Positions 50,433-63,645 of a stretch of DNA of 64,000 nucleotides are shown piece by piece. Every line of letters starts with the position of its first letter. The first letter of the stretch is position 1. The position numbers and the translations under genes are program-made. The DNA comes from a virus, in IMG/VR virus record IMGVR_UViG_3300046777_001575, positions 14,478 through 78,477 of that record. One strand, given 5' to 3'. The notes beneath the pieces are model-generated. The model was given only the letters and a program-made list of their open reading frames with translations, made no database searches and was not told the origin of the DNA.

Positions 50433-50684
50433 TTATTTAATGACCCCCGCTTGCATAAGGGCTACATACCGCTTAGCAATTCTAATTGCCATAGGGTGAG
50501 GGGTAGGGCGTAGCGCACCTTTTTCCCATGTGGCAGGATACTTATTGTTAATTCGTTGAGCAACACGAATTGGTAATTCATACTTAGGGCGAGGTGCATA
50601 ACCTGCAGCCTCTAAGCCAAATTCTTTAGCAATGTCAGAACGAATTTCGTTATAGTAGTTATTTAGTGTAGTCATTTTGACCAC
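50433..50684 (-). CDS. Hypothetical protein
   Basis: SD GAAAGG; leftward promoter TTGACT-N17-TAGTAT at ~50712-50740. Confidence 0.6.
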   Translation of the reverse strand: MVKMTTLNNYYNEIRSDIAKEFGLEAAGYAPRPKYELPIRVAQRINNKYPATWEKGALRPTPHPMAIRIAKRYVALMQAGVIK

Positions 50685-50878
50685 CTTTCTTTTTTAATTC
50701 TTATAGTAGTAATACTAGCATAGAAATGTCAAAAAGTCAAGTTTAGACACGGACAAATCGGACATTTTCTTTGTGATTTAGACCACATGACAAATCGGAC
50801 ATATTGGACACACGTCTGTCAAGTCGACACGCCGATAATGCTATGATCGTTACGGAAATGTTATAATTCCCCTAAAAA

Positions 50879-50894
50879 TGTGATGTGATTCACA
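50879..50894. promoter_or_regulatory. CRP/GlxR-type box TGTGA-N6-TCACA (representative)
   Basis: Perfect copies at 50879, 52199, 53231, 54599, 60311; 1-mismatch copies at 50772, 52075, 55853, 56141, 58197. Confidence 0.75.
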
Positions 50895-50934
50895 ATCCCA
50901 ATTGTTCTAAATGTCCGTTTTGTACCCCTCAATT

Positions 50935-50956
50935 TGTCAGACCCCCCTGCTACACT
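50935..50956 (+). promoter_or_regulatory. RecA-NDp/PafBC-type promoter TGTCAG-N10-TACACT
   Basis: Exact spacing; first of 8 copies. Confidence 0.75.
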
Positions 50957-51012
50957 TGTAGGTATACAAGGTTGAAAAAGAAGTAAGCCCCTAAAAGAAA
51001 GGTAGTTTCTAA

Positions 51013-51999
51013 ATGACTACACTAACAATAATCGAAGTATGTAAAACACATACACCTAATAAATCTGCTATCTCTATGGTAGGAGATGACCAATTCACTT
51101 TCTGTGAGGTCTGTGAAAATAACATAGAGCGTTGGTATAACGATACCGACCCAGAGCGTCTACCTATGTGGACAGATTGGAAAGTGTCTAAATGATAAAA
51201 GACTACATTGACCAAAATGAGTTTTATCTTATCAAAGATGAACAACATTTTTGCTGTGGCGAAAGCCAATTCGTCTATGTGTGTAAATCACACGGAGAAC
51301 AAATGGATTGCTACTTTTGCGGTTTCGACTACTCTACAGATTGCGAGGAACAACACTAATGACTACACTACTACGCCTTGACTCCGTATGTGGAAAGACA
51401 CATACTTTCGTTGATGTCTATGACATAAACCTAAACCCTCACGGCTCTATCTGCTGTGATAACTGTCAATCAATCCTAATGTGCCGAGAGGCATGGGACT
51501 ATCTCTATAAGGAGAATAACTAATGCCAGTATTTGAGTTTACCACTTTTATCAACATTGAGGCAGATAACTATGATGATGCAATTGATGTATTTGACTAT
51601 AAACTAAAAACAGGAATAAACAGAAGCGATGTCTATGTCGCAGAAATTGAGGAACAGTAAATGACTAAATACAATGTGCTTATTTCTTATGTCGTAGAGG
51701 CAGAAGATGAAATGAGAGCGGTATTCGCTCTAAACAAATCACTCTATCCACTAAGTGAAAATGAATTAGAAAAGTTTAACGCTTTTCATGTAGAGGAGGC
51801 TACACAATGAAAACACTACAAGAAAAATTAGATGAAGCCGCTCTAGCACTAGAGCCAATCTTATGGGAAACACTAAAAGAAATTGAGGAAAACTAAAATG
51901 GAAAAAGATTTATTCGGATTTGCTGATGCAATTAATTTGGATCATCTCAACTTAGAACAACTAAAAGAATTAGAAAAACTTTTAGAAAAAATAAAATAA
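51013..51999 (+). CDS. Operon of seven tiny early genes (51013-51195, 51192-51359, 51359-51523, 51523-51660, 51661-51810, 51807-51896, 51898-51999)
   Basis: Mostly ATGA/TAATG overlaps or abutting, several with SD; the first three are Cys/His-rich. Confidence 0.7.
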
Positions 52000-52049
52000 A
52001 AAAACAATTTTGCAGAAATAAAAACTCTGCAAAAATTGCACGTGCAGAG

Positions 52050-52070
52050 TTATCCACAGGCTGTGTATAA
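52050..52070. promoter_or_regulatory. Paired DnaA boxes
   Basis: TTATCCACA-ggc-TGTGTATAA; similar pairs at 53197/53209, 58161/58173 and 63549/63561, plus 63636. Confidence 0.7.
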
Positions 52071-52242
52071 CTTATGTGGTATAAATCACATACGACACGC
52101 CGTGTTTGGGCTTGACTTTTTGAGTTTTGTGTGATAGTCTTACTACATAAGAAAAACTAAATAAAGGACAAATTGGCTAATGAGCCTAAGCAAATAAATG
52201 TGAGATAAATCACAGTGAGCCTTAGCAAATAAGTAGCCAAAA

Positions 52243-52264
52243 TGTCAGACCCCTCTGATAGGAT
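52243..52264 (+). promoter_or_regulatory. PafBC-type promoter TGTCAG-N10-TAGGAT
   Basis: Exact spacing. Confidence 0.75.
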
Positions 52265-52295
52265 AGTCTTATCAAAATAAAGAAAGGAAGTCAAA

Positions 52296-53146
52296 ATGAC
52301 TTACACTATAACACTAGAAACCTTCAATGGTTCAACTAAAAAAATCGCTCTCCCTTCTCGTGGTGCGGTTGCTCAATTCATCTCAACTTATCCAACACAA
52401 CTTCCCGTAGGTGTTGCGGTAAAAGTATCTTGCGACGCTTTAGGCGTTAGCGGAACACTAAGAGGAAAGGCGGTTCTCTAATGATAAACTCCGTTCTAAC
52501 AATTCCTTGTGATGAATGTAATTCAACAGGTCTAATCTTTTTTGGTAATGATTTTGACTATGATGTAGAAACCTGCTCTTGTGATTTTGGCAAAGAACAA
52601 GACCTCAATTTTTTCAACAACTAAAAGAATAGGAAATAAAAATAATGACAAAAATAATTGAACACTCTCTAAAGTTTGTAACCGAGTTTGATGAAACTCA
52701 TCCAGTATCACAGCAAGCCCTTGCTATTCCTCACTCAGAATTAGTAAAAATGCTTGAGCAAATGCTAAAAGAATTAGTCGTGCCTGCACTTGGTCCAGTT
52801 ATTGAGGAAATAAATAAAAATGGTTCTTATGCAATTCTAAAGGTGGCCGAATAATGATGACACGAAAAGACTATGTAGCAACTGCTGAAATTTTATCTTC
52901 TTATAAAGATTTAATCGCTGATGAATTTACTTTTCAAGATTTAGTAAATGATTTTGGTGCAATGTTTGAGGCAGATAATCCAAGATTTAATTTTGAAACT
53001 TTTAGAGAGGCTTGTGAAAAATGAATAGACTACTAACAACTATTGTTCAACTATTTTTAGCGGGAACTGTTTTTATTTTATTCCGCATGATGTTGCCAAT
53101 GTTAAAAGAAGATTTGCAAGAAATAAAAAACGATTTGCAAAAGTAA
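52296..53146 (+). CDS. Operon of five small early genes (52296-52481, 52481-52624, 52645-52854, 52854-53024, 53021-53146)
   Basis: Coupled ORFs; 52854 has the phage-common MTRKDY…DNPRF…F..AC pattern. Confidence 0.7.
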
Positions 53147-53151
53147 ATTGT

Positions 53152-53178
53152 GATCCTGAGCAAGATTCAAAACTGCTC
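53152..53178 (+). ncRNA. H-type pseudoknot element, copy 1
   Basis: GAUC-CU-GAGCA-A-GAUU-CAAAAC-UGCUC. Confidence 0.7.
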
Positions 53179-53377
53179 AAATTTTGGACGTGGGACTTAT
53201 CCACAGGCTGTGGAAAACCTTTAAGTACGATGTGAGATTTATCACATGGCTTGAGCGTCTCATTATTTAAGATTACTCGCTAGTAAGTTGATATTTTTTA
53301 TCTAATAGGATAGACTTACATAGTAAGAAAAAATAAATAAAGAAAGTCTATTTATCTACGGCGTGTCTAACCGAAAA

Positions 53378-53399
53378 TGTCAGACCCCTATGCTAAGAT
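53378..53399 (+). promoter_or_regulatory. PafBC-type promoter TGTCAG-N10-TAAGAT
   Basis: Exact spacing. Confidence 0.75.
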
Positions 53400-53432
53400 A
53401 GAATTATCAACAAAAAAGAAAGAGGTTGCCCA

Positions 53433-54531
53433 ATGGCTACTAAACTATACACAATAGAAAACCTACTTGTAGGAAAAACTTATCGTTCTAACTCTCGCCA
53501 CTTTGAGGGAGAAATTGTTTCTGCCCGACCAAGAACAGAAATTTGGTATGGCGAAAATACAGAAGCCTATCTAATTGAAGTAAATACTCGCAGTTTGCGA
53601 AATAAGTTTGCGACTATCGCAGTAAAGGTTGGTGAATAATAATGGGATACATAGAGATTTTTAGAATTGACAATGAAGGCGCAGGTTGGATAGACTTGTC
53701 CCAAGCCAATAGCGATGAATTGTTTAATTTAGAGTTAGGCTTACTTAATGAAGGCGCACTATTTACAACGAAAGAGGCAGACTAATGGAATACCTATACG
53801 CAGTTACTAGCACTAATGATAACGATACTAACCCTGAGTGGGTTGGTCGCTATTCTAATGCCCTTGAAGCAGTAAATGTCTTTAATAGTTTTATTGACTA
53901 TGGTGATGCAAAAGAGTATCGCACAGTTAATTTATCAGAGCCTTCAGGCAAAATGCACACTAAGATTTTTTATACTAATGGAACAGTAGGAGGTAAGTAA
54001 TAATGGGTTCAGTTACAGCAATAGGGTTGGCAGATAGTGTCCTTGACCTTGAAACACAATTACTTTATCACCTTAGAGGTAATCACTATCCTCCAGTCCC
54101 CGCAGAAATGGTAACACCTTGTATTGAAGCAATTGATGCTGCCTATGAAGAAGACTATGACCGCATGATTGACATGCCTATGGTTGGCGACTTTCAAATT
54201 ACTTATAAAGGTAGCAAGCAAGCACCTGCATGGGCTATCATAGAGCAACACCACCTTCAATTTTTTATTGACCCAGTAGATGAGGATTGAAATGTCTGAT
54301 ACAATGATTGACATGGAACTAGTCTTTGCAGATAACTTAACACCAGATCAATTAATGATTGGTGATTTAATTAAAATTGGTGACGACATTCTTGAAGTAA
54401 AATTTATTGAAAGTGATTCTACTGGAGATAACTACGACATACAAACTGAAAACGAATTTGGTGAAACAGAATTTACACAGTATAGTTATACTGATTTAAT
54501 TCCGTTGTATGTTTTTATTCAAGAAGAATAA
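53433..54531 (+). CDS. Operon of five small early genes (53433-53639, 53642-53785, 53785-54000, 54003-54290, ~54292-54531)
   Basis: Closely packed ORFs with SD sequences. Confidence 0.7.
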
Positions 54532-54660
54532 TAAAAATATTTTTATGCACTTCCCCGCATAAAAATGCACGTCCCGCAGTCGGGCGTGTCGTGATCTATG
54601 TGAGATTGATCACATTAAGCAGATTTGACATTTTCCCCCGATTTATGATAAGATTATTTT

Positions 54661-54807
54661 ATGAAAAAAACACCAGAGGAATTACGCAGGCTTATGGAAT
54701 TGCGCCGTAGCAATGCTGCTTCTGCCGTGCCCTCTAAAAAAGCCTACTCTCGCAAGGGTAGAAAATGTCAGTCTGAAATGCTACAATTAAAATATAAAAA
54801 CTACTAA
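54661..54807 (+). CDS. Small basic protein (leaderless)
   Basis: TTGACA-N18-TAAGAT-N6-ATG; MKKTPEELRRLMELRRSNAASAVPSKKAYSRKG…. Confidence 0.65.
   Translation: MKKTPEELRRLMELRRSNAASAVPSKKAYSRKGRKCQSEMLQLKYKNY
54766..54787 (+). promoter_or_regulatory. PafBC-type promoter TGTCAG-N10-TACAAT (inside an ORF)
   Basis: Exact spacing; precedes 54824-55000 and the GP88-like gene. Confidence 0.7.
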
Positions 54808-54989
54808 GAAAGGTCGTGCCCCCATGACATTCGAAAACGATGAATTCTATGATGAATTCTATGCAACAATATGCCCTTCATGCAATGAAAATTCAATAGA
54901 TGAAAATGATGAAAAGTGTGGCTCATGCATGCTAGATGAATTGGCTGAAACCTACAATGAGGATATTGCCTTAGAAATGAGCCTAGGCC

Positions 54990-55724
54990 TTGACTACTAA
55001 TACACTTAAACTAAAACGCTCTAATGATAGAAAGGTGGCTAACCTTGTCACAAAAAATGGAAAACAAGCCGCAATTGCCAACACATTCGGATTACCCGCA
55101 GGAAAAAACTATTCATGTCCTGGCGCTACGAGTGTCTGCGAAACTGTTTGCTACGCTGGCAAATTGGAAAAAATATTCCCAGGAGTAAAAACTAATTTAC
55201 TACATAACTGGGACCTGTTAAAAGACGCAGATCTTACAACTATGTACACTTTACTTTCTGATATGATTGCAGAATTTAAAACTGATTGTGTAAAGAAAGA
55301 CGCACCTATGCTATTCCGCATTCACTGGGACGGAGATTTCTTTAGCGATGAGTACGCACACGCATGGCGCATGGTTATTGAAGAACAACCCGACATTCAA
55401 TTCTGGGTATACACACGAGTAAAGTCTGCAGCGCTTATTCTTAAGGATGTATCTAATCTTTCACTTTATTTTAGTACTGATAGTGAGAATGTAAAAACTG
55501 GCGTTGACTTAAAAAATCAAAACGGTATTCGTCTTGCATACCTTGCTAAAAATTTCGCAATAGGTCAAGCAGACATGAAAGAAATGATTGGTAAGCCTGG
55601 CGCTAAATGTCCAGAAAATGCAAAACGCATTCCACTAATTAGCAATGCAGGCTCCGCTTGTGTTTCTTGCTCACTTTGTGTATACTCTAAAGCAGACATA
55701 GTTTTTTCTGCAACTAAGAAATGA
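54990..55724 (+). CDS. Gene-product-88-like (radical-SAM-related Cys cluster) phage protein
   Basis: FGLPAG…CPGATSVCETVCYA, FRIHWDGDF, FWVYTR, C-terminal CP…CVSCSLC. Confidence 0.75.
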   Translation: MTTNTLKLKRSNDRKVANLVTKNGKQAAIANTFGLPAGKNYSCPGATSVCETVCYAGKLEKIFPGVKTNLLHNWDLLKDADLTTMYTLLSDMIAEFKTDCVKKDAPMLFRIHWDGDFFSDEYAHAWRMVIEEQPDIQFWVYTRVKSAALILKDVSNLSLYFSTDSENVKTGVDLKNQNGIRLAYLAKNFAIGQADMKEMIGKPGAKCPENAKRIPLISNAGSACVSCSLCVYSKADIVFSATKK

Positions 55725-55961
55725 GTTAAAGTGAGTAATACACAAATTATTTTTTTCTTTTGGTGTTTAGTTCTTTTATTTTTTATGCAATGATCGCAAA
55801 GGTGGGCACGTCCGCAAAATCTAATTTGTCAAGTTACGACACGCCTTTAAGATGTGATTAAGGACACACTCAAAATCCTCCCCTGAATTGGTATTTTTGA
55901 CATTTTTCTGCTAAAATTATAATGTAGGAAAAACCCCCACAACAGAAAGGCAAGACCCAAA

Positions 55962-56132
55962 ATGACACTTCACGGATACACTTACCAAATTGGTGATTTA
56001 TTCACAACAAGTAAGACAGGCGTTACAGGTCGTATCGCAGGTTTTACACCAATGTCTAATAAGGTTACTAGAGTTAGTCTGGTTTTGGCAAATGGCTCAC
56101 GCCGTTTGGCTATGGTCAAGACAAGCAAGTAA
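55962..56132 (+). CDS. Small beta-barrel (SH3/KOW-like) protein
   Basis: MTLHGYTYQIGDLFTTSKTGVTGRI…; SD GAAAGG. Confidence 0.65.
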   Translation: MTLHGYTYQIGDLFTTSKTGVTGRIAGFTPMSNKVTRVSLVLANGSRRLAMVKTSK

Positions 56133-56239
56133 TCTCACATTGTGAGAAATGTCAGAAATGGATTTGACATTTTTATCCCCAAAATGTTATACTTAGGTAT
56201 AACCAAATAACAACCCCTAACAGAAAAGGAAATAAACAA

Positions 56240-56404
56240 ATGGCAGTAAATACAGCACTATACAAGGTCGGAGATACTTTCACAACACAGAAGTCAAAGA
56301 TTACAGGAACTATCTTGGAAATCAACCCACAGGCTAATGGTAATGTTCGTGTAAAGTTAGATGTAGATGGCAAGGCTCGCTACACAACTTGGACAGCAAA
56401 GTAA
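56240..56404 (+). CDS. Small beta-barrel protein, paralog of 55962-56132
   Basis: MAVNTALYKVGDTFTTQKSKITGTI…; own promoter TTGACA-N18-TATACT. Confidence 0.65.
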   Translation: MAVNTALYKVGDTFTTQKSKITGTILEINPQANGNVRVKLDVDGKARYTTWTAK

Positions 56405-56421
56405 TTTAGCAAACGCTAAAA

Positions 56422-56450
56422 AGTCCTGAGCAAGACTACTAAAACTGCTC
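56422..56450 (+). ncRNA. H-type pseudoknot element, copy 2
   Basis: AGUC-CU-GAGCA-A-GACU-ACUAAAAC-UGCUC. Confidence 0.75.
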
Positions 56451-56487
56451 AACACAACCCCCAACTAACAGAAAAGGAAAAGACCCA

Positions 56488-56913
56488 ATGGCTAGAAACG
56501 GAAAATCTATCAGCGTGAAAATCGCTACACCTAAAGTAATCAAGGCACTAGAAACACGCCTTGCTGAGTTAGAAAAGTCATACGCCACACAAGGCGAGAA
56601 CGAGGCAAAGTATCAGAAAGCCCGTGATAAGTGGCAAAAGGAAATCGGTAAGTGGGCTGTTGCTAACTTTGCTAAGGCAGAGAACATCAGAACAAACTAT
56701 CGTAATTGGAACAAAACCCTAAATGTGGATTTTGACCTTATTGTAAATGAAAGTGATTTCCCTAAAGAGCCTGAAAAGGACTTTGAGGTAATCCACTCAC
56801 ACTCTTACAATGAGATGAAAGAGGAAATCACGAACGCAATTCGTATCCTCAAAATGACAGATGAGGAAGTTGTAAATACTTCCACATACAACGCTATTGC
56901 TCGTTATCTATAA
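56488..56913 (+). CDS. Hypothetical protein
   Basis: 141 aa; SD AAAGGA. Confidence 0.75.
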   Translation: MARNGKSISVKIATPKVIKALETRLAELEKSYATQGENEAKYQKARDKWQKEIGKWAVANFAKAENIRTNYRNWNKTLNVDFDLIVNESDFPKEPEKDFEVIHSHSYNEMKEEITNAIRILKMTDEEVVNTSTYNAIARYL

Positions 56914-56923
56914 ATAACAGCAA

Positions 56924-56950
56924 CCACCTGAGTAAGTGGCTAAACTGCTC
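56924..56950 (+). ncRNA. H-type pseudoknot element, copy 3
   Basis: CCAC-CU-GAGUA-A-GUGG-CUAAAC-UGCUC. Confidence 0.75.
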
Positions 56951-57017
56951 CCCGCAATCCCCCTGCGTTCAAGGCAGAGTTTCTGCGAAAGTCCCCTGGG
57001 GGATCATAAACGGGTAT

Positions 57018-57047
57018 TTGACAAATGTCAGCCTCGTGCCCTATAAT
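57018..57047 (+). promoter_or_regulatory. Dual promoter: -35 TTGACA plus -26 TGTCAG sharing TATAAT
   Basis: TTGACA-aa-TGTCAG-N10-TATAAT. Confidence 0.8.
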
Positions 57048-57080
57048 TAAATAAATACCTAAAGAAAGAAGGAAGCCCCC

Positions 57081-57578
57081 ATGGGATTAGATATGTATCT
57101 TAGTGCTAAGAAGCACATGGAAAAAATTGACTGGAAAGCGCTAAGAGATAATGAGGAATTATCTTATTCATCACCTGAAGCCGTTTATCCTAAGTTTAAT
57201 GATTTAATGGAACTAACGCAACTAAGCGATGTTGCTACAGATATCTATGGTGCAAGTGTAGAGGTTACCTGTGCCTACTGGCGCAAGGCTAATCAAATTC
57301 ACAAATGGTTTGTCGATAATGTACAACAAGGTGAAGATGATTGTGATAACTACTATGTTTCACAAGATAAATTAATAGAGTTGATTGCAATATGTAAGCA
57401 TGCATTAGAAACTAAGGACCCTAGCCTGCTACCGCCGCAATCAGGATTTTTCTTTGGCAGTACAGATATTGATGAATGGTATTGGAAAGATTTAGAAAAT
57501 ACTATTAGTCAGTTAGAGCGTATCTTTGCTTTACCTGAAGTAGATAAATTATCATTCTACTACACTTCCTCTTGGTAG
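57081..57578 (+). CDS. Conserved phage hypothetical protein
   Basis: MGLDMYL…YWRKANQIHKWFV…GFFFGS…YTSSW. Confidence 0.8.
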   Translation: MGLDMYLSAKKHMEKIDWKALRDNEELSYSSPEAVYPKFNDLMELTQLSDVATDIYGASVEVTCAYWRKANQIHKWFVDNVQQGEDDCDNYYVSQDKLIELIAICKHALETKDPSLLPPQSGFFFGSTDIDEWYWKDLENTISQLERIFALPEVDKLSFYYTSSW

Positions 57579-57600
57579 GGGAAGTTAGTAGGATCCAAAA

Positions 57601-57630
57601 TTGACAATTGTCAGCGGTACCTAGTACAAT
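57601..57630 (+). promoter_or_regulatory. Dual promoter: -35 TTGACA plus -26 TGTCAG sharing TACAAT
   Basis: TTGACA-at-TGTCAG-N10-TACAAT. Confidence 0.8.
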
Positions 57631-57662
57631 TAATATTAACAACTAACAGAAAGAGGGCCCCC

Positions 57663-58088
57663 ATGGACCAGCAAGAAACAGCAGTAAAGATAGTAAACGC
57701 AACAGAAGACTTTCTTAAGTCAGAAATTGAAAAGAAGGACCAACGCATTACTCAACTAGAAGAGCACATTCAAAAAGTAACGCAGCGCTCATATGCAGAT
57801 TCTGCAGACCGTAACCGTATCACAGAGGCCATGCAAGAGTGGACCTTGGAGCAATTGGACGAAGGGTCTCTTACAGAATCACAGGCCGAAGAGATTGCAG
57901 AAATTATTGGCTTTGAGTTAACAAAAGAATTCGAAGTTGAAGTAACTGTGATGTACTCAGTCACTGTTAATGCTCGCACTGAAGAAGAAGCACAGAATGC
58001 AATTCATGATATTGATTTTGATTCTGTTTCTTATAACGATGATTCAATTTCTTATCTGTCATCCTCAATTGACAGAATAGATATTTAG
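57663..58088 (+). CDS. Hypothetical acidic coiled-coil protein
   Basis: 141 aa ORF after a promoter and SD. Confidence 0.75.
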   Translation: MDQQETAVKIVNATEDFLKSEIEKKDQRITQLEEHIQKVTQRSYADSADRNRITEAMQEWTLEQLDEGSLTESQAEEIAEIIGFELTKEFEVEVTVMYSVTVNARTEEEAQNAIHDIDFDSVSYNDDSISYLSSSIDRIDI

Positions 58089-58103
58089 TAGGGGGCTACT
58101 AAT

Positions 58104-58130
58104 AAACCTGAGCATGTTTTAAAACTGCTC
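58104..58130 (+). ncRNA. H-type pseudoknot element, copy 4
   Basis: AAAC-CU-GAGCA-U-GUUU-UAAAAC-UGCUC. Confidence 0.7.
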
Positions 58131-58261
58131 CTCTTTTCCCCAAAAAAATGCACGTGGGGTTTATCCACAGGGTTATCCACATGATCAAGATCACATTGTG
58201 AATTACGACACAGTTACGAAATGTCCGAATTATCCCATGTCTAACTATCCCGATTTGTATT

Positions 58262-58283
58262 TGTCAGCCTATCCTGCTATACT
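58262..58283 (+). promoter_or_regulatory. PafBC-type promoter TGTCAG-N10-TATACT
   Basis: Exact spacing; upstream of the DUF932 gene. Confidence 0.75.
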
Positions 58284-58314
58284 TGAAATTCAACAACAAA
58301 AAGGAGAAAAACTC

Positions 58315-59337
58315 ATGGCACATGACCTAGAAACACAAAACGGAAAAACATCTTTTGCTTCTTTCCGTGAACCTGCTTGGCATGGATTGGGAACTGTCTT
58401 CACAGAAGAAAAAACAACTGCAGAAATGCTAGAGGCTGCAAACCTCAATGGTTGGAATGTTCGTCTGGAAGATTTAGAAACCCCCTCACATCTAACAAGC
58501 GACAAGAACTACCAGTATGTTCTTCGCACTAACCCTACTGATAACACACAAACCGACATTCTTGGTGTCGTTGGTGAGCGTTATCATGTTTTGCAGAATG
58601 AAGATTTATTCTCATTTGGTGATAACATTCTTGACGGCGGTGGTCGTTGGGAAACTGCTGGCTCAATCAAGGGTGGTCGTGTTGTATTCGGTGCTCTTGC
58701 ATTAGAGCGTGAAACAATTCTAGACCCTAGCGGTGTTGCAGATAAAGTAAAAACTTATTTGCTCATCAACACATCACACGATGGCTCAATCGCAATTCAG
58801 GCTTCAATCACACCAGTGCGTGTTGTCTGCGCTAATACTCTCAACCTTGCTCTTGGTGGCGTAGGTCGTAAGAAAAATAAGGGTATCAAGCAATCATTCA
58901 AGATACGCCATACACAAACTGCAAATGGTAAAGTGCAGATTGCTCGTGAAACTCTTGGGCTTGCTAACACTTACATGGACGAATTCGATAAAATGGCTAA
59001 GGCTATGATTGAGAAGGAAGTTTCTGCTAAGCAATTCAATGACATCATTCTTGCTGCATACGCTAAGCCTGAAAAGGACGCTAAGGGTGCTTTCAAGAAA
59101 TGGGAAAATAAAGTTGATACTATCAACGACATCTATACTGGCGAATTCAATGGAATGATTGCTGGTAATGCGTGGGGTGCTTTCAATGCACTTACTGAAC
59201 GCCTTGATTGGTATCGTTCTGCTCGTGGTGGTTCTAACGAGTCAATCCTCGCAAGTGCAAGTGGTTTTGACCCTGCTATCAACGCAGAAAAAAATCGTTT
59301 GCTAAAAGTTGTGCAAAATGTAATGCAGATTGCATAA
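58315..59337 (+). CDS. DUF932 / phage-plasmid-like protein (TIGR03299 type)
   Basis: REPAWHGLG, WETAGSIKGGRVVF, YLLINTSHDGS, TPVRVVCANTL. Start re-set to MAHDLE after SD AAGGAG. Confidence 0.88.
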   Translation: MAHDLETQNGKTSFASFREPAWHGLGTVFTEEKTTAEMLEAANLNGWNVRLEDLETPSHLTSDKNYQYVLRTNPTDNTQTDILGVVGERYHVLQNEDLFSFGDNILDGGGRWETAGSIKGGRVVFGALALERETILDPSGVADKVKTYLLINTSHDGSIAIQASITPVRVVCANTLNLALGGVGRKKNKGIKQSFKIRHTQTANGKVQIARETLGLANTYMDEFDKMAKAMIEKEVSAKQFNDIILAAYAKPEKDAKGAFKKWENKVDTINDIYTGEFNGMIAGNAWGAFNALTERLDWYRSARGGSNESILASASGFDPAINAEKNRLLKVVQNVMQIA

Positions 59338-59344
59338 ATAAAAA

Positions 59345-59372
59345 ATTTCCTGAGCATGAAATAAAACTGCTC
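59345..59372 (+). ncRNA. H-type pseudoknot element, copy 5
   Basis: AUUUC-CU-GAGCA-U-GAAAU-AAAAC-UGCUC; 7 nt before the tRNA. Confidence 0.75.
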
Positions 59373-59379
59373 ACCATTA

Positions 59380-59453
59380 GGTCCGTTAGAATAGTTGGTT
59401 AGTTCGCTACCCTGTCACGGTAGAGGTCACGGGTTCAAGTCCCGTACGGATCG
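59380..59453 (+). tRNA. tRNA-Asp(GTC)
   Basis: Acceptor GGTCCGT/ACGGATC, discriminator G, anticodon arm CTACC-CTGTCAC-GGTAG, T-loop GTTCAAG; CCA not encoded. Confidence 0.93.
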
Positions 59454-59639
59454 CAATTAATAAATATGCATTGCAGTGCATAAAAAATGCACGTGAGTAC
59501 AAACCAGACAATTCGGACATATCAAAAATGTCAAATTGAAAAATCTTTACGAAGGCTATTACTGATCTCCCAAAATGTCAAACCTAAAAATCTTTACGAT
59601 AGAGTTGACATTTCCCAGGTTCTAGACTACAATTAATAT

Positions 59640-60578
59640 ATGACCCAACAAGTTGCAATATATGAAATGGAATACTCATGCTCTCCTGGCGGTATTGACT
59701 GCTGGGAAGCAACTATCAATGGCTATGGTACTAGTAGTACTGCTAGTGATTTTAAGACTGCTGGAGAGGCTCTTAACTGGGTTCTTGACAGATACCCTGA
59801 TGAAATGTTAGAATTGACAGTAGTTTCACTCCCCGCATATGAAAAGGAAATAGCATGACCCAAACAGAAATATTCAATAAAGTAATACAAACCATCTATG
59901 ATGACAACTTCTCTCATGTAGATTTCATGGACAACATGGGTGGAGATTGTGATTGTCAAATCCACAATGTATTAAACTTCTTACATGAATACGAGGTAGC
60001 ATAATGTTGGGTTATACTAAAGAAGATTTAGATAATATGCAGTATGGTGTTGACTGTGTTCTACTTATGATCAACTCTGATGATAACCCTGCTATCTTTA
60101 ATTATTTAACTACTACCTCAGAATTCCTAGGTGGTCTATGGGCAGAAGGGTATTTTGACTAATGTGGACTAAGTATAGTTATGTTTGTTCAGACTGTGAC
60201 TCTCTTATTGAGGTTACTACCAATAAGGCTCCCGTGCTAGATCCAGGGTGTGTCTGTGGTTTGGATACATTTGTTACCCGCACAGCCCTAGAGCCAACGG
60301 TAATGCCAAATGTGATGAGTATCACATCCTCAGATGTTGTAAAAATCAACACAAACCCCTATAATTAATATATGGACCTAAACACACTTATAGAATATAT
60401 GAGAATACATCTCATCAGTCTATATCAGGATGCAGAAATGCTTCAAGATAAAATGGACAACTTTAAAGGTGACCTTGACTCTTGGGACTATCAGGAGTTA
60501 GAGATTGCTGATATGAATAATACAGGCGAGATTGCCGCTACTCAACACCTTTTGTCAGTGGCAGAGGGTAGAATATAA
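59640..60578 (+). CDS. Five small early genes (59640-59858, 59855-60004, 60004-60162, 60162-60368, 60372-60578)
   Basis: Leaderless promoter TTGACA-N17-TACAAT-N6-ATG; coupled ORFs. Confidence 0.7.
60553..60574 (+). promoter_or_regulatory. PafBC-type promoter TTGTCAGTG-N8-TAGAAT, leaderless to ATG 60581
   Basis: Full match to the mycobacterial RecA-NDp consensus as I recall it. Confidence 0.78.
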
Positions 60579-60580
60579 TC

Positions 60581-61301
60581 ATGAACACAACACAACTAGA
60601 CCCAAGACTGCAAAAACTCGTAGACCTAGGGGAATCAGGTACTGATATCCTCCATGGTGAACTCAAGAACCTAATGCTTGAGGCTGAAAAGGAATACCTT
60701 GAAGCACAACAGATTGAAGAAGATAACGACTATTCCGACGCTATGGAATCCATGGAGCGGAAGTACTGGGAAGGCATGTGCGACGCATACTCTCATGTCT
60801 ATGCTCTTACATACCAACTAGCATTTGCTATTAGTGATAGGGCTAAGAATCGTGGATAAATTTATCGAAATGACAATGGATGAGTGGGAAGCCACATATA
60901 AGCCTATTTATAATCATATTGATAAGAATGCCTCATTCCAAGATGAGACAGGCCAAGGTATCATGTTTGAAACCTATGGCGATGAGGTAGAGTTTGTTAA
61001 ATCTCAGGACCCTGCAAAAATTTGGATGTATGGTGATGGAGACGATGGTGGCTCCTATATCTGGTCTGGCTGGGGATTTGTAAATAGACTAGGATACTTC
61101 ATTACTGAGGTTCCGTGCCCACCTGACACAACGATTCAGATTCAGGTTAGTGTACCTTGGTATTTCTGCGAGAATTGCGAGGCAGAACTAGAAGACCCTG
61201 ATAATCTTATTAGAGATGCCTTTGATGAGGCAGACTTGCAAAAATGTCCTGAATGCGCTACAATTGAAGAAATGACCCTAGTAGGAATGGAAAAGAAATG
61301 A
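60581..61301 (+). CDS. Two hypothetical acidic proteins (60581-60859; 60852-61301 with C-terminal Zn ribbon)
   Basis: ORF track; CENC…CPEC. Confidence 0.7.
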
Positions 61302-61636
61302 CCCAATACATAATCGATGAACTAGAACTCGTAGGCTCCTTTGCTGTTGACAGCGGTCAAGCAATGGTAGGCGACCCCTGCTATTTAGACCAATGGAAAA
61401 CCAATGAAGGCGAGGAGTGGAACCTAGAAGGCAAGGCTGGAGATTACTCTTATCACGGCGCAAGTGCTATGACAATTCAGGCTAATGCTGGAGTGCTGGG
61501 CACTGGCTCTGCAGTTGTATTTAATACAGGCTATGGAGATGGCTATTATCCTGTCTATGTTAAGTATAATGAGGACGGACGAATTGTTAAGGTAGTTATT
61601 GATTTTGAAGGTGACTTAGATGAGGAACAAGACTAA
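61298..61636 (+). CDS. DUF4241-like protein
   Basis: FAVDSGQAMVGDPCY…TGYGDGYYPVY…VVIDF. Confidence 0.75.
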   Translation: MTQYIIDELELVGSFAVDSGQAMVGDPCYLDQWKTNEGEEWNLEGKAGDYSYHGASAMTIQANAGVLGTGSAVVFNTGYGDGYYPVYVKYNEDGRIVKVVIDFEGDLDEEQD

Positions 61637-62174
61637 TGCCACTATACACAATCATCGCTACACGAGAAGTACAGTATGAATTTAATATTGAGGCTGAAGA
61701 TGAAGCCTCTGCCATTGAGGAGATCAACCGTATTGAACTCAATGAAGATGTTGAAGAATATGCCTATGACTGGTATCCTTTAGAAGTCACCGAAATTAAT
61801 GAAGAGGAGCAGGAATAATGGGAGACAGAATCGTATACACAATCAAACAAGATAGTAATTTATCTTTAAATTTATACAGTCACTGGGGTGGCTATGATAG
61901 ATTTACTAGTCTTGCCAATGCCCTGAATGCAGCACGGCCTAGATGGGATGACTCATCATATGGCGCTAGAATTATTGTTTCTCAATTGATTGGGGACCAA
62001 TGGGCTGAAGAGACTGGGTTTGGGCTCTGGGCCTCTAGCGAAGATGGCTACTATGGCGGGGACCATCCAGATATCACAATTGATTTTATTAATAAGACTG
62101 TTACAGATGAAACTGGGACCCATACATTTGAACAGTTTATAGCCTACCATGGAAGTTTGACTGCGACGGTCTAG
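61636..62174 (+). CDS. Two hypothetical proteins (61636-61818; 61818-62174 with LYSHWGG motif)
   Basis: TAATG-coupled ORFs. Confidence 0.7.
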
Positions 62175-62195
62175 GTATTGGGTCACCTAGGCCAC

Positions 62196-62240
62196 AGGGG
62201 GAGGGGCATGCGTGGGGCTTGCTCTTTCCCCCACTTTTTG
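62196..62240 (+). terminator. Probable intrinsic terminator
   Basis: G-rich/C-rich stem (GGGGGAGGGGCA…TGCTCTTTCCCCC) followed by ACTTTTT. Confidence 0.55.
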
Positions 62241-62264
62241 ATACAATGTATATAAGGGAGAACT

Positions 62265-62709
62265 ATGCGTATAAATCGTAAACTAACAGAAGAAGAAAAA
62301 GTTGCCAACAGATTGGGCAATATGGTTTCTGACCTTCGTGTTGATTTGGAATTGGTCGGGGAATATATAGCATATTCTCAGCCCCATGTAGTTTATAATC
62401 GCTTACAGGTTATTGCCGAAGCAGCAAAAGAAACTAAGGAGAATACTAATTATGCCAAAAACCACATTTGAAAACAAGGCTCTAATTTTAGGGCAACTAT
62501 GGATAAACTATAAAGCAGATGAGGAGTGGATTGACTTTTTTGTTTACAACGATTTAGGTTTGCCACTTGCTTTCGCATTTGCCGAGGGAATCATAAACCA
62601 CACACCAACATTAGAACAATACATAAACGAAACATGGGATTTGTTCCTTGAAGGTTTGGATACTGAGGATGAAGGGTTTGAAGATATTGAGGATTTGTTA
62701 GAAGATTAG
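62265..62709 (+). CDS. Two hypothetical proteins (62265-62471; 62452-62709)
   Basis: SD GGAG before both starts. Confidence 0.7.
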
Positions 62710-62749
62710 CAATCCTGCCCGAAAGGGCCCACGTGCCATATCTTTATCA

Positions 62750-63645
62750 AATTGTCAAACCAAAAACCTTTGTATCCAAACATTACGATCCAACCTAAAA
62801 ATCCCCAAACCAGAACATTACGAACCTCCAAAACCTTCCCCCTCCAGAAGATTACGATCCAAACCTTATATCCCCAAACCTTATACCATAGATATCGAGG
62901 TTTGTCAAACCATATATCCACGATGTTATACCATATCCAAACCTATTTGTCAAACCAGGTGTATAATTATATTATGAGTCCAAGACATTTTGCAAACCTT
63001 AGACAGTCAGATCCTCAAGCATATAAAAAAGGAGAAGACAAGGTTTGGAATACCTTTGTAGGTATTACTCATACTATAGGTTTGAATAGATTCTTTACCT
63101 TTACCCCCGATTTTTTACCAGGCCCCGCCAAAGGCGAGAATATCACAGGCCGCTTTGAGCCAGGGGAAATCCCAGGGGATCAATAAACAAACCAATAACA
63201 CCCCCTATAGAATAACAAACCTTTTCCCTGGTTTTCTATAAATTACATAATAGTTTTATTAAATAACATTACGATATTGGTAAATTTTCCCCTAATTTGG
63301 GGATATTTTTATGGGCATTTTCATGCATAAAAAGACTTGACAAACCATGGTTTTGCATGTATAATGCCCAAACCTTATATCAGGATATGATGGTTTGACA
63401 ATATCGGGCAAATGTGGTATGAGGGTTTGGGATAGGGAGGTTTGTCGGTTTGACATTACGATCCCCTTTATGATATACTCCAATCTCCACTATCCTCCAC
63501 TTCACTCCACTTCTACCCTATCTAATAATATAATCAGTAAGATTAATCTGTGGATAAACCTGTGGATAACTATCAAACCCAAGGCACCACAACACCTTAA
63601 CAAACCTTATTTTAAGGTATCCTAACACCTTAACCTGTGGATAAC
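62750..63645. repeat. Iterated-motif region (CCAAACC, TGTCAAACC, ATTACGATCC, DnaA boxes); possible replication origin
   Basis: Dense short repeats, AT-rich tract at ~63230-63290, three TGTGGATAA. Confidence 0.45.
62974..63186 (+). CDS. Hypothetical protein (leaderless)
   Basis: TATAAT-N6-ATG; MSPRHFANLRQ…. Confidence 0.5.
   Translation: MSPRHFANLRQSDPQAYKKGEDKVWNTFVGITHTIGLNRFFTFTPDFLPGPAKGENITGRFEPGEIPGDQ

Follow-up and report, generated by a model that had tools for sequence, protein, structure and literature searches.

The 78,477-base contig of IMG/VR virus record IMGVR_UViG_3300046777_001575 was analysed over bases 14478-78477, a stretch of 64,000 nucleotides (nt) that is called the window here and is numbered from its first base. 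The analysis was centred on a repeated promoter-like element, TGTCAG followed after 10 nt by TAnnnT (TGTCAG-N10-TAnnnT). The guanine-plus-cytosine (GC) content of the window is 33-42%. The left 47 kb, on the - strand, encodes the portal, the capsid, a tape measure of 2982 amino acids (aa), fibres, and a class II ribonucleotide reductase. A block of some 40 small genes on the + strand follows, in which the only recognisable families are GP88, DUF932, and DUF4241; nearly all of the other products belong to no family, and no DNA-binding family emerged when 40 proteins from the block and its flanks were searched with Pfam. A tRNA-Asp gene is found at 59380-59454, downstream of the DUF932 gene. The contig is 72% complete, and the part of the phage genome with whiB falls outside it.

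In the window, TGTCAG-N10-TAnnnT has eight matches, all on the + strand between 50935 and 60574 (Table 1), with no further match on either strand of the rest of the contig. Dinucleotide shuffles (n = 100) gave a mean of 0.96 matches and a maximum of 5, so none reached 8. The spacing is strict, with eight pairs at N10, none at N9 or N11, two at N8, and one at N12. TGTCAG alone is not enriched (28 observed against 35 expected), and the signal is therefore the pairing with the -10 box. Seven of the eight sites are intergenic, with 31-56 nt between the end of the -10 box and an ATG preceded by a Shine-Dalgarno sequence. An extended -10 (TGn) is found in five sites, and a good -35 for the N10-linked -10 box is absent from six, the other two having a perfect TTGACA at spacer 18. 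A preliminary description of this DNA had listed eight TGTCAG coordinates with their -10 hexamers, an exact spacing of 10 nt, a position on the coding strand shortly before a start codon, and two "dual" copies with a perfect -35. Coordinates and hexamers were recovered exactly as written, the zero counts at N9 and N11 bear out the spacing, all eight sites precede an ATG on the + strand, and the dual copies are promoters 5 and 6.

Table 1. Putative promoters and other mapped features of the window (positions in window numbering)
Feature	Position	Strand	Composition and context
Small-gene block	51013-63625	+	~40 small genes, two predicted promoter classes
Promoter 1	50935-50956	+	TGTCAG-N10-TACACT, extended -10 TGc; before ATG 51013, small-gene operon 51013-51810
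Promoter 2	52243-52264	+	TGTCAG-N10-TAGGAT, TGa; before ATG 52296, operon 52296-53146
Promoter 3	53378-53399	+	TGTCAG-N10-TAAGAT, TGc; before ATG 53433, operon 53433-54531
Promoter 4	54766-54787	+	TGTCAG-N10-TACAAT, TGc; before ATG 54824, genes 54824-55724 including a GP88-family protein (PF17338)
Promoter 5, dual	57018-57047	+	TTGACA 57018-57023, 2 nt, TGTCAG 57026, N10, TATAAT; before ATG 57081 (165 aa)
Promoter 6, dual	57601-57630	+	TTGACA 57601-57606, 2 nt, TGTCAG 57609, N10, TACAAT; before ATG 57663 (141 aa)
Promoter 7	58262-58283	+	TGTCAG-N10-TATACT, TGc; before ATG 58315 (DUF932 protein, 340 aa)
Promoter 8	60553-60574	+	TGTCAGTG-N8-TAGAAT, full RecA-NDp form; before ATG 60581
Canonical promoter	54625-54654	+	TTGACA-N18-TAAGAT; ATG 54661 six nt past the -10 box, predicted leaderless
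Canonical-class promoter	56164-56193
Canonical-class promoter	59605-59633		ATG 59640, predicted leaderless
Canonical-class promoter	59785-59814
Canonical-class promoter	63337-63365
Canonical-class promoter	63450-63479
DnaA boxes	52050, 53197, 58161, 58173	+	TTATCCACA
DnaA boxes	63549, 63561, 63636, 27858	-	TTATCCACA
CGACACGCC copies in gaps	50825, 52093, 55837
CGACACGCC copies in gaps	54583, 53360	-
AATGTCCGAWTT sites	50755, 50792, 50910, 58220, 59510, 49030, 48057

Relatives of the DUF932 protein occur on 423 IMG/VR contigs; among the best 80, identity to it is 91-99%. Across 80 related loci, 1.38 Mb in total, the pattern occurs 556 times in the forward and 36 times in the reverse orientation, and the spacing is again sharp (556 at N10, 11 at N9, and 2 at N11). 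An unbiased scan, which started from every + strand TA-N-R-M-T and tallied the hexamers at all upstream offsets, ranked TGTCAG at spacer 10 first, with 409 unique contexts; TTGACA was counted 145 times at spacer 17 and 132 times at spacer 18. The family logo of the box class reads A-A-W-TGTCAG-[T/A][C/G][C/G]C-nnn-TGn-TAnAAT. An alignment of 42 distinct orthologous regions upstream of the DUF932 gene served as a footprint of that promoter: TGTC is kept in 41 of the 42, position 5 is A or G, and seven to eight spacer bases drift at constant spacer length, with TGn-TAnnnT retained. The sole variant that lacks the box has TTGACT in its place.

Among the 610 forward TGTC(A/G)G sites of the family, 98% have an open reading frame (ORF) downstream, and at least 129 different genes lie behind them. 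The distance from the -10 box to the start codon falls into two sharp classes, of 30-34 nt and, at 58 sites, of exactly 6 nt. A 6-nt gap is the arrangement found with leaderless mRNAs, which are common in Actinobacteria, and would agree indirectly with a transcription start 6-8 nt past the -10 box. In complete family genomes, the sites gather in one zone of 7-10 kb. The conservation of this arrangement indicates that the family sites are promoters, neither chance matches nor the product of mere paralogy.

The layout of these sites was compared with that of the promoters activated by the host factor PafBC (RecA-NDp promoters). The PafBC motif determined in vivo spans 22 nt and reads tGTCgg(N10)tA(N3)T; PafB contacts positions -23 to -28, where its R46 and R50 recognise the conserved GTC, and a -35 is absent, in a mode termed sigma adaptation that was compared to the sigma appropriation of T4 in the paper describing it (PMC8635444). 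Other Actinobacteria share the motif, and both PafBC and LexA control recA (PMC8223512). PafBC is activated by single-stranded DNA (ssDNA) (PMC11804915). Counted from the -10 box, the phage sites fit the published layout base for base, with TGTC(A/G)G at -28 to -23, N10, TAnnnT, and a constant GTC core; most, though not all, lack a -35. The likeness to RecA-NDp/PafBC promoters drawn in the preliminary description thus stands, the phage layout being identical to the published consensus (PMC8635444). The phage sites differ from the cellular promoters (PMC8635444, PMC11804915, PMC8223512) in their density of ~8 per 10 kb, in their occurrence in a virulent-looking phage upstream of genes of unknown function, in their stronger -10 boxes (TAnAAT, often with TGn), in an overlap with a TTGACA or TTGACT -35 at 70 of the 610 family sites, and in having no accompanying LexA box. 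No LexA box is found in the window, and the phage would therefore have copied the activator half alone of the host circuit. As in the LexA-run SOS wiring of temperate phages (lambda-type induction), phage genes would be coupled to the DNA-damage signal of the host (ssDNA), but in this phage an activator would make the coupling positive, and the five family genomes searched gave no match to a tyrosine integrase.

Complete genomes of the family, which is found in freshwater, are 112-119 kb long. WhiB scores above the Pfam cut-off in 4 of the 4 complete relatives examined, and its matches among cultured phages are exclusively actinophages, the best being Stanwilliamsviridae (42-46% identity); whiB serves as an actinophage marker (PMC10202952). 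The capsid protein is 40-42% identical to that of Streptomyces phages of the Stanwilliamsviridae, and the gene order ribonucleotide reductase-portal-protease-capsid-tape measure is similar to that in BillNye, Coruscant, and their relatives, but Streptomyces phage BillNye is without any TGTCRG-N10-TAnnnT site. A near-identity search with 12 kb of phage DNA found no match among cultured phages. Freshwater, aquatic, and plankton metagenomes from 15 studies contain the stretch, and metatranscriptome libraries contain it in part. Because WhiB is found in all four complete relatives and both capsid and WhiB are nearest to those of Streptomyces phages, the phage, which is uncultured and abundant in fresh water, is, on sequence grounds, assigned as an actinophage. 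The phage GC content of 37% was considered as a bar to an actinobacterial host and rejected; a low GC content is no argument against such a host, given WhiB in all complete relatives.

A search of genome contigs for WhiB found no relative, and the WhiB homologues in the protein collection all proved to be members of the phage family and so are uninformative on the host. The nearest cellular homologues of the phage NrdJ are from Actinomycetota, at 56-57% identity. NrdJ matches of 83-96% identity in metagenome-assembled genomes (MAGs) of many phyla were rejected as hosts, as they are misbinned phage contigs; family contigs (L096-L109) were found binned in MAGs named Chitinophagaceae, Flavobacterium, Bifidobacterium, Luteolibacter, and Paceibacteria, among others. 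Such contigs are a trap for host prediction. The candidate order was itself reached through misbinned phage DNA, in a 1.5-Mb 'Actinomycetota bacterium' MAG; genomes of the order are mostly 1.2-1.5 Mb. It is assigned to the Nanopelagicales (acI) because its RecA is 91% identical to that of 'Candidatus Planktophila sp.'.

All 41 sampled Nanopelagicales genomes contain two adjacent WYL genes. In the genome whose pair was compared, they match PafB (1e-38) and PafC (2e-22) of M. smegmatis in the solved complexes (chains 7p5x/9fnd), and its PafB retains the RMFER motif with the GTC-reading arginines R46 and R50. Upstream of recA, TGTC(A/G)G-N10-TAnnnT is found in 25 of 30 genomes, mostly as TGTCAGTGGCGCCTGCTACCTT and directly followed by the LexA box TCGAACagatGTTCG; the remaining five have CGTC(A/G)GTG-N8-TACCTT. 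Taken together, the 41 genomes have 194 matches to TGTCRGTG-N8-TAnnnT and 29 to the reversed control; leaderless radA and carD are among the genes downstream of the motif. The box form of the phage is the recA/radA box of this order. The preliminary description had proposed a search of the host for pafBC, and the candidate hosts do carry pafB-pafC, with the same box at recA and radA. From WhiB, habitat, abundance, and the shared promoter form, we infer that the phage infects Nanopelagicales; the argument for PafBC requires just an actinobacterial host with pafBC.

Some Nanopelagicales genomes have a single zone of ~20-65 kb in which five to eight PafBC-type boxes are gathered (G014:C1:438000-472000; L185, L186), and similar zones are present in genomes G011, G016, G033, G035, and G045. 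The boxes lie upstream of genes for TPR proteins, a trypsin-like peptidase, VWA proteins, a C5 DNA methylase, an OGG-like glycosylase, and unknowns, and the cluster may be a damage- or phage-responsive island.

A second promoter class is predicted in the small-gene block of the phage. Because both TGTCAG (at N10) and TTGACA (at N17/N18) rise in the hexamer scan, the block is, by its sequence signals, served by two classes, one with the TGTCAG box and one with a canonical TTGACA. Exactly 6 nt separate each of the start codons at 54661, 59640, and 60581 from the -10 box before it, and leaderless mRNAs are therefore predicted. For the last of these, promoter 8 sits inside the 3' end of the ORF at 60372-60578 and its layout likewise predicts a leaderless transcript; an alternative reading of this promoter would be TTGTCA-N16-TATAAT. 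RNA-library contigs from two studies begin at 52277, 6 bases past the predicted start of promoter 2, although contigs cannot show starts, strand, or expression level, and other such assembled contigs begin 6-29 nt after predicted starts, with one beginning 12 nt before. In one RNA-library contig, 50957 (the end of promoter 1) is linked through 15 foreign bases to 52282, which lies in the operon 2 leader; the contig represents a variant phage without the first operon and suggests cassette swapping at promoters.

From these comparisons, host PafBC probably adapts sigma-A RNA polymerase to the TGTCAG promoters of the phage, which would belong to the PafBC/RecA-NDp class; we hold this reading with some, but not high, confidence. 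The GTC element at -28 to -23, separated by exactly 10 nt from a sigma-A -10 box, would stand in for the -35, and the PafB-PafC heterodimer of the host, activated by ssDNA, would sit between the element and region 4 of sigma-A. Unmodified host RNA polymerase could thereby transcribe six to eight small-gene operons of the phage, and the canonical TTGACA promoters of the same block would fire without PafBC. A more tentative proposal, which we consider possible but doubtful, is that ssDNA made during infection activates host PafBC and that the phage uses this unavoidable alarm as a timer for most of the small-gene block; resected ends, replication forks, or degraded host DNA are candidate triggers.

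Several observations weigh against control by host PafBC. Seven of the eight window promoters have an extended -10 or a TTGACA -35, and at these sigma-A alone may therefore suffice, making PafBC dispensable. The TG that usually follows the box directly in host sites is found at only one of the eight window sites. In 181 of 419 unique family sites (43%), a second TAnnnT lies at N15-17. No fold was recognised in some 40 small proteins of the phage, among which there could be a new factor. The phage GC content is 5-14 points under that of the candidate hosts, and the host is itself inferred, with 'Ca. Nanopelagicales' as the candidate. BillNye, the cultured relative, has zero sites, so that there is no tractable model so far.

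The extended -10 and TTGACA elements and the second TAnnnT bear on an alternative in which the sigma-A holoenzyme suffices on its own, either through the extended -10 or with xTGTCA as a weak -35 for a second -10, and the box is a PafBC sponge or a repressor operator. We regard this as unlikely. The five TGn sites, the two further sites with TTGACA, and the second hexamers at N15-17 favour it, but a hexamer at N15-17 without one at N10 is found in just 16 of 571 TGTCAG contexts, and G6 is retained in ~97% of xTGTCA sites at the N10 spacing, which a -35 reading leaves unexplained. In host recA boxes, too, the element is paired with TGc-TAnnnT, and promoters of the class thus normally tolerate an extended -10. 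In the sponge variant, TGTCAG boxes would blunt the damage response of the host by titrating PafBC; at ~800 sites per Mb in the phage, where hosts have ~3 per Mb of the strict pattern, a factor in short supply would be titrated.

It is quite improbable, in our estimate, that an unrecognised phage-encoded factor reads TGTCAG independently of host PafBC, whether as an analogue of T4 MotA/AsiA or as a PafB mimic without a WYL domain. The canonical TTGACA promoters would express such a factor, which would then steer host RNA polymerase to TGTCAG "middle" promoters. The parallel with T4 middle promoters (a MotA box at -30 plus a -10, served by AsiA/MotA) is close in that a nearer upstream box replaces the -35 with an adaptor on sigma region 4, and in that one gene block uses such promoters beside canonical early ones; the two promoter classes of the block, the resemblance of sigma adaptation to T4 sigma appropriation (PMC8635444), and the ~40 small proteins without family are all consistent with it. 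However, T4 encodes both of its factors, whereas the five family genomes searched yielded neither a MotA nor an AsiA homologue, and the phage box is one that the host itself uses. In five family genomes, WYL, HTH_11, and sigma-70 region 2 gave no match, and neither did MotCF or AsiA, for which the control genomes gave no positive and sensitivity is thus unproven. When host PafB and PafC were used as phmmer queries, the ORFs of the contig and of 87 related loci gave no match. The phage-encoded PafBC mimic suggested in the preliminary description therefore found no backing, as neither a WYL nor a PafB/C homologue turned up in these sets. The phage box, moreover, equals the host recA/radA box, including the A/G wobble and the TGG extension, a likeness that a private factor would not need. 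That the sites are functionless copies of one duplicated cassette is highly improbable, since only sites 50935, 52243, and 53378 have a common spacer start (ACCCC), whereas the remaining spacers are unrelated, the orthologue footprint retains box and spacing but not spacer sequence, and at least 129 different genes lie downstream.

If infection does activate host PafBC and thereby time the TGTCAG promoters, PafBC would work in favour of the virus in acI/Nanopelagicales, the bacteria most abundant in fresh water, and the host could not silence it without losing the induction of its own recA and radA. PafBC and sigma adaptation have so far been known solely as a cellular DNA-damage response. The compact, portable promoters described here would then form a phage regulon under a host sigma adaptor, the first of its kind, and would give a virulent phage family a new route to seize transcription without a factor of its own. 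Phage infection would be predicted to activate a WYL-domain ssDNA sensor, and the wiring may have a part in how the actinobacteria that dominate fresh water are turned over. Full-text literature searches found no description of phage promoters of the PafBC class or of such a phage regulon, in agreement with the preliminary description, to which no described phage regulon of this kind was known.

Other repeated words were noted near the promoters. Palindromes of the CRP type (TGTGA-N6-TCACA, at most one mismatch) occur ten times at 50772-60326 in the small-gene block, compared with 3.75 expected for the whole window, and four of the ten lie within a few bases of the word CGACACGCC. At no more than one mismatch, CGACACGCC itself is found six times in the window (1.6 expected), five of these in intergenic gaps. 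A word akin to it, GCGACACGCC, lies 13-17 nt upstream of the Nanopelagicales recA box and is absent at other host boxes; GACAC(GCC) was rejected as a general partner of the host box, being present at recA only. Perfect DnaA boxes number eight in the window, with 0.87 expected, and the three within 100 bases at 63.55-63.64 kb may mark an origin.

An operator-like word, AATGTCCGAWTT, has eight occurrences in the window against 0.76 expected. It clusters between promoter 1 and a divergent gene for an 83-aa protein (50433-50684, - strand), and upstream of the DUF932 promoter it is strongly conserved in the 42 variants. The intergenic gaps between 51811 and 59640 contain CCTGAGCA...AAACTGCTC after stop codons and ATGCACGTG after terminator hairpins.

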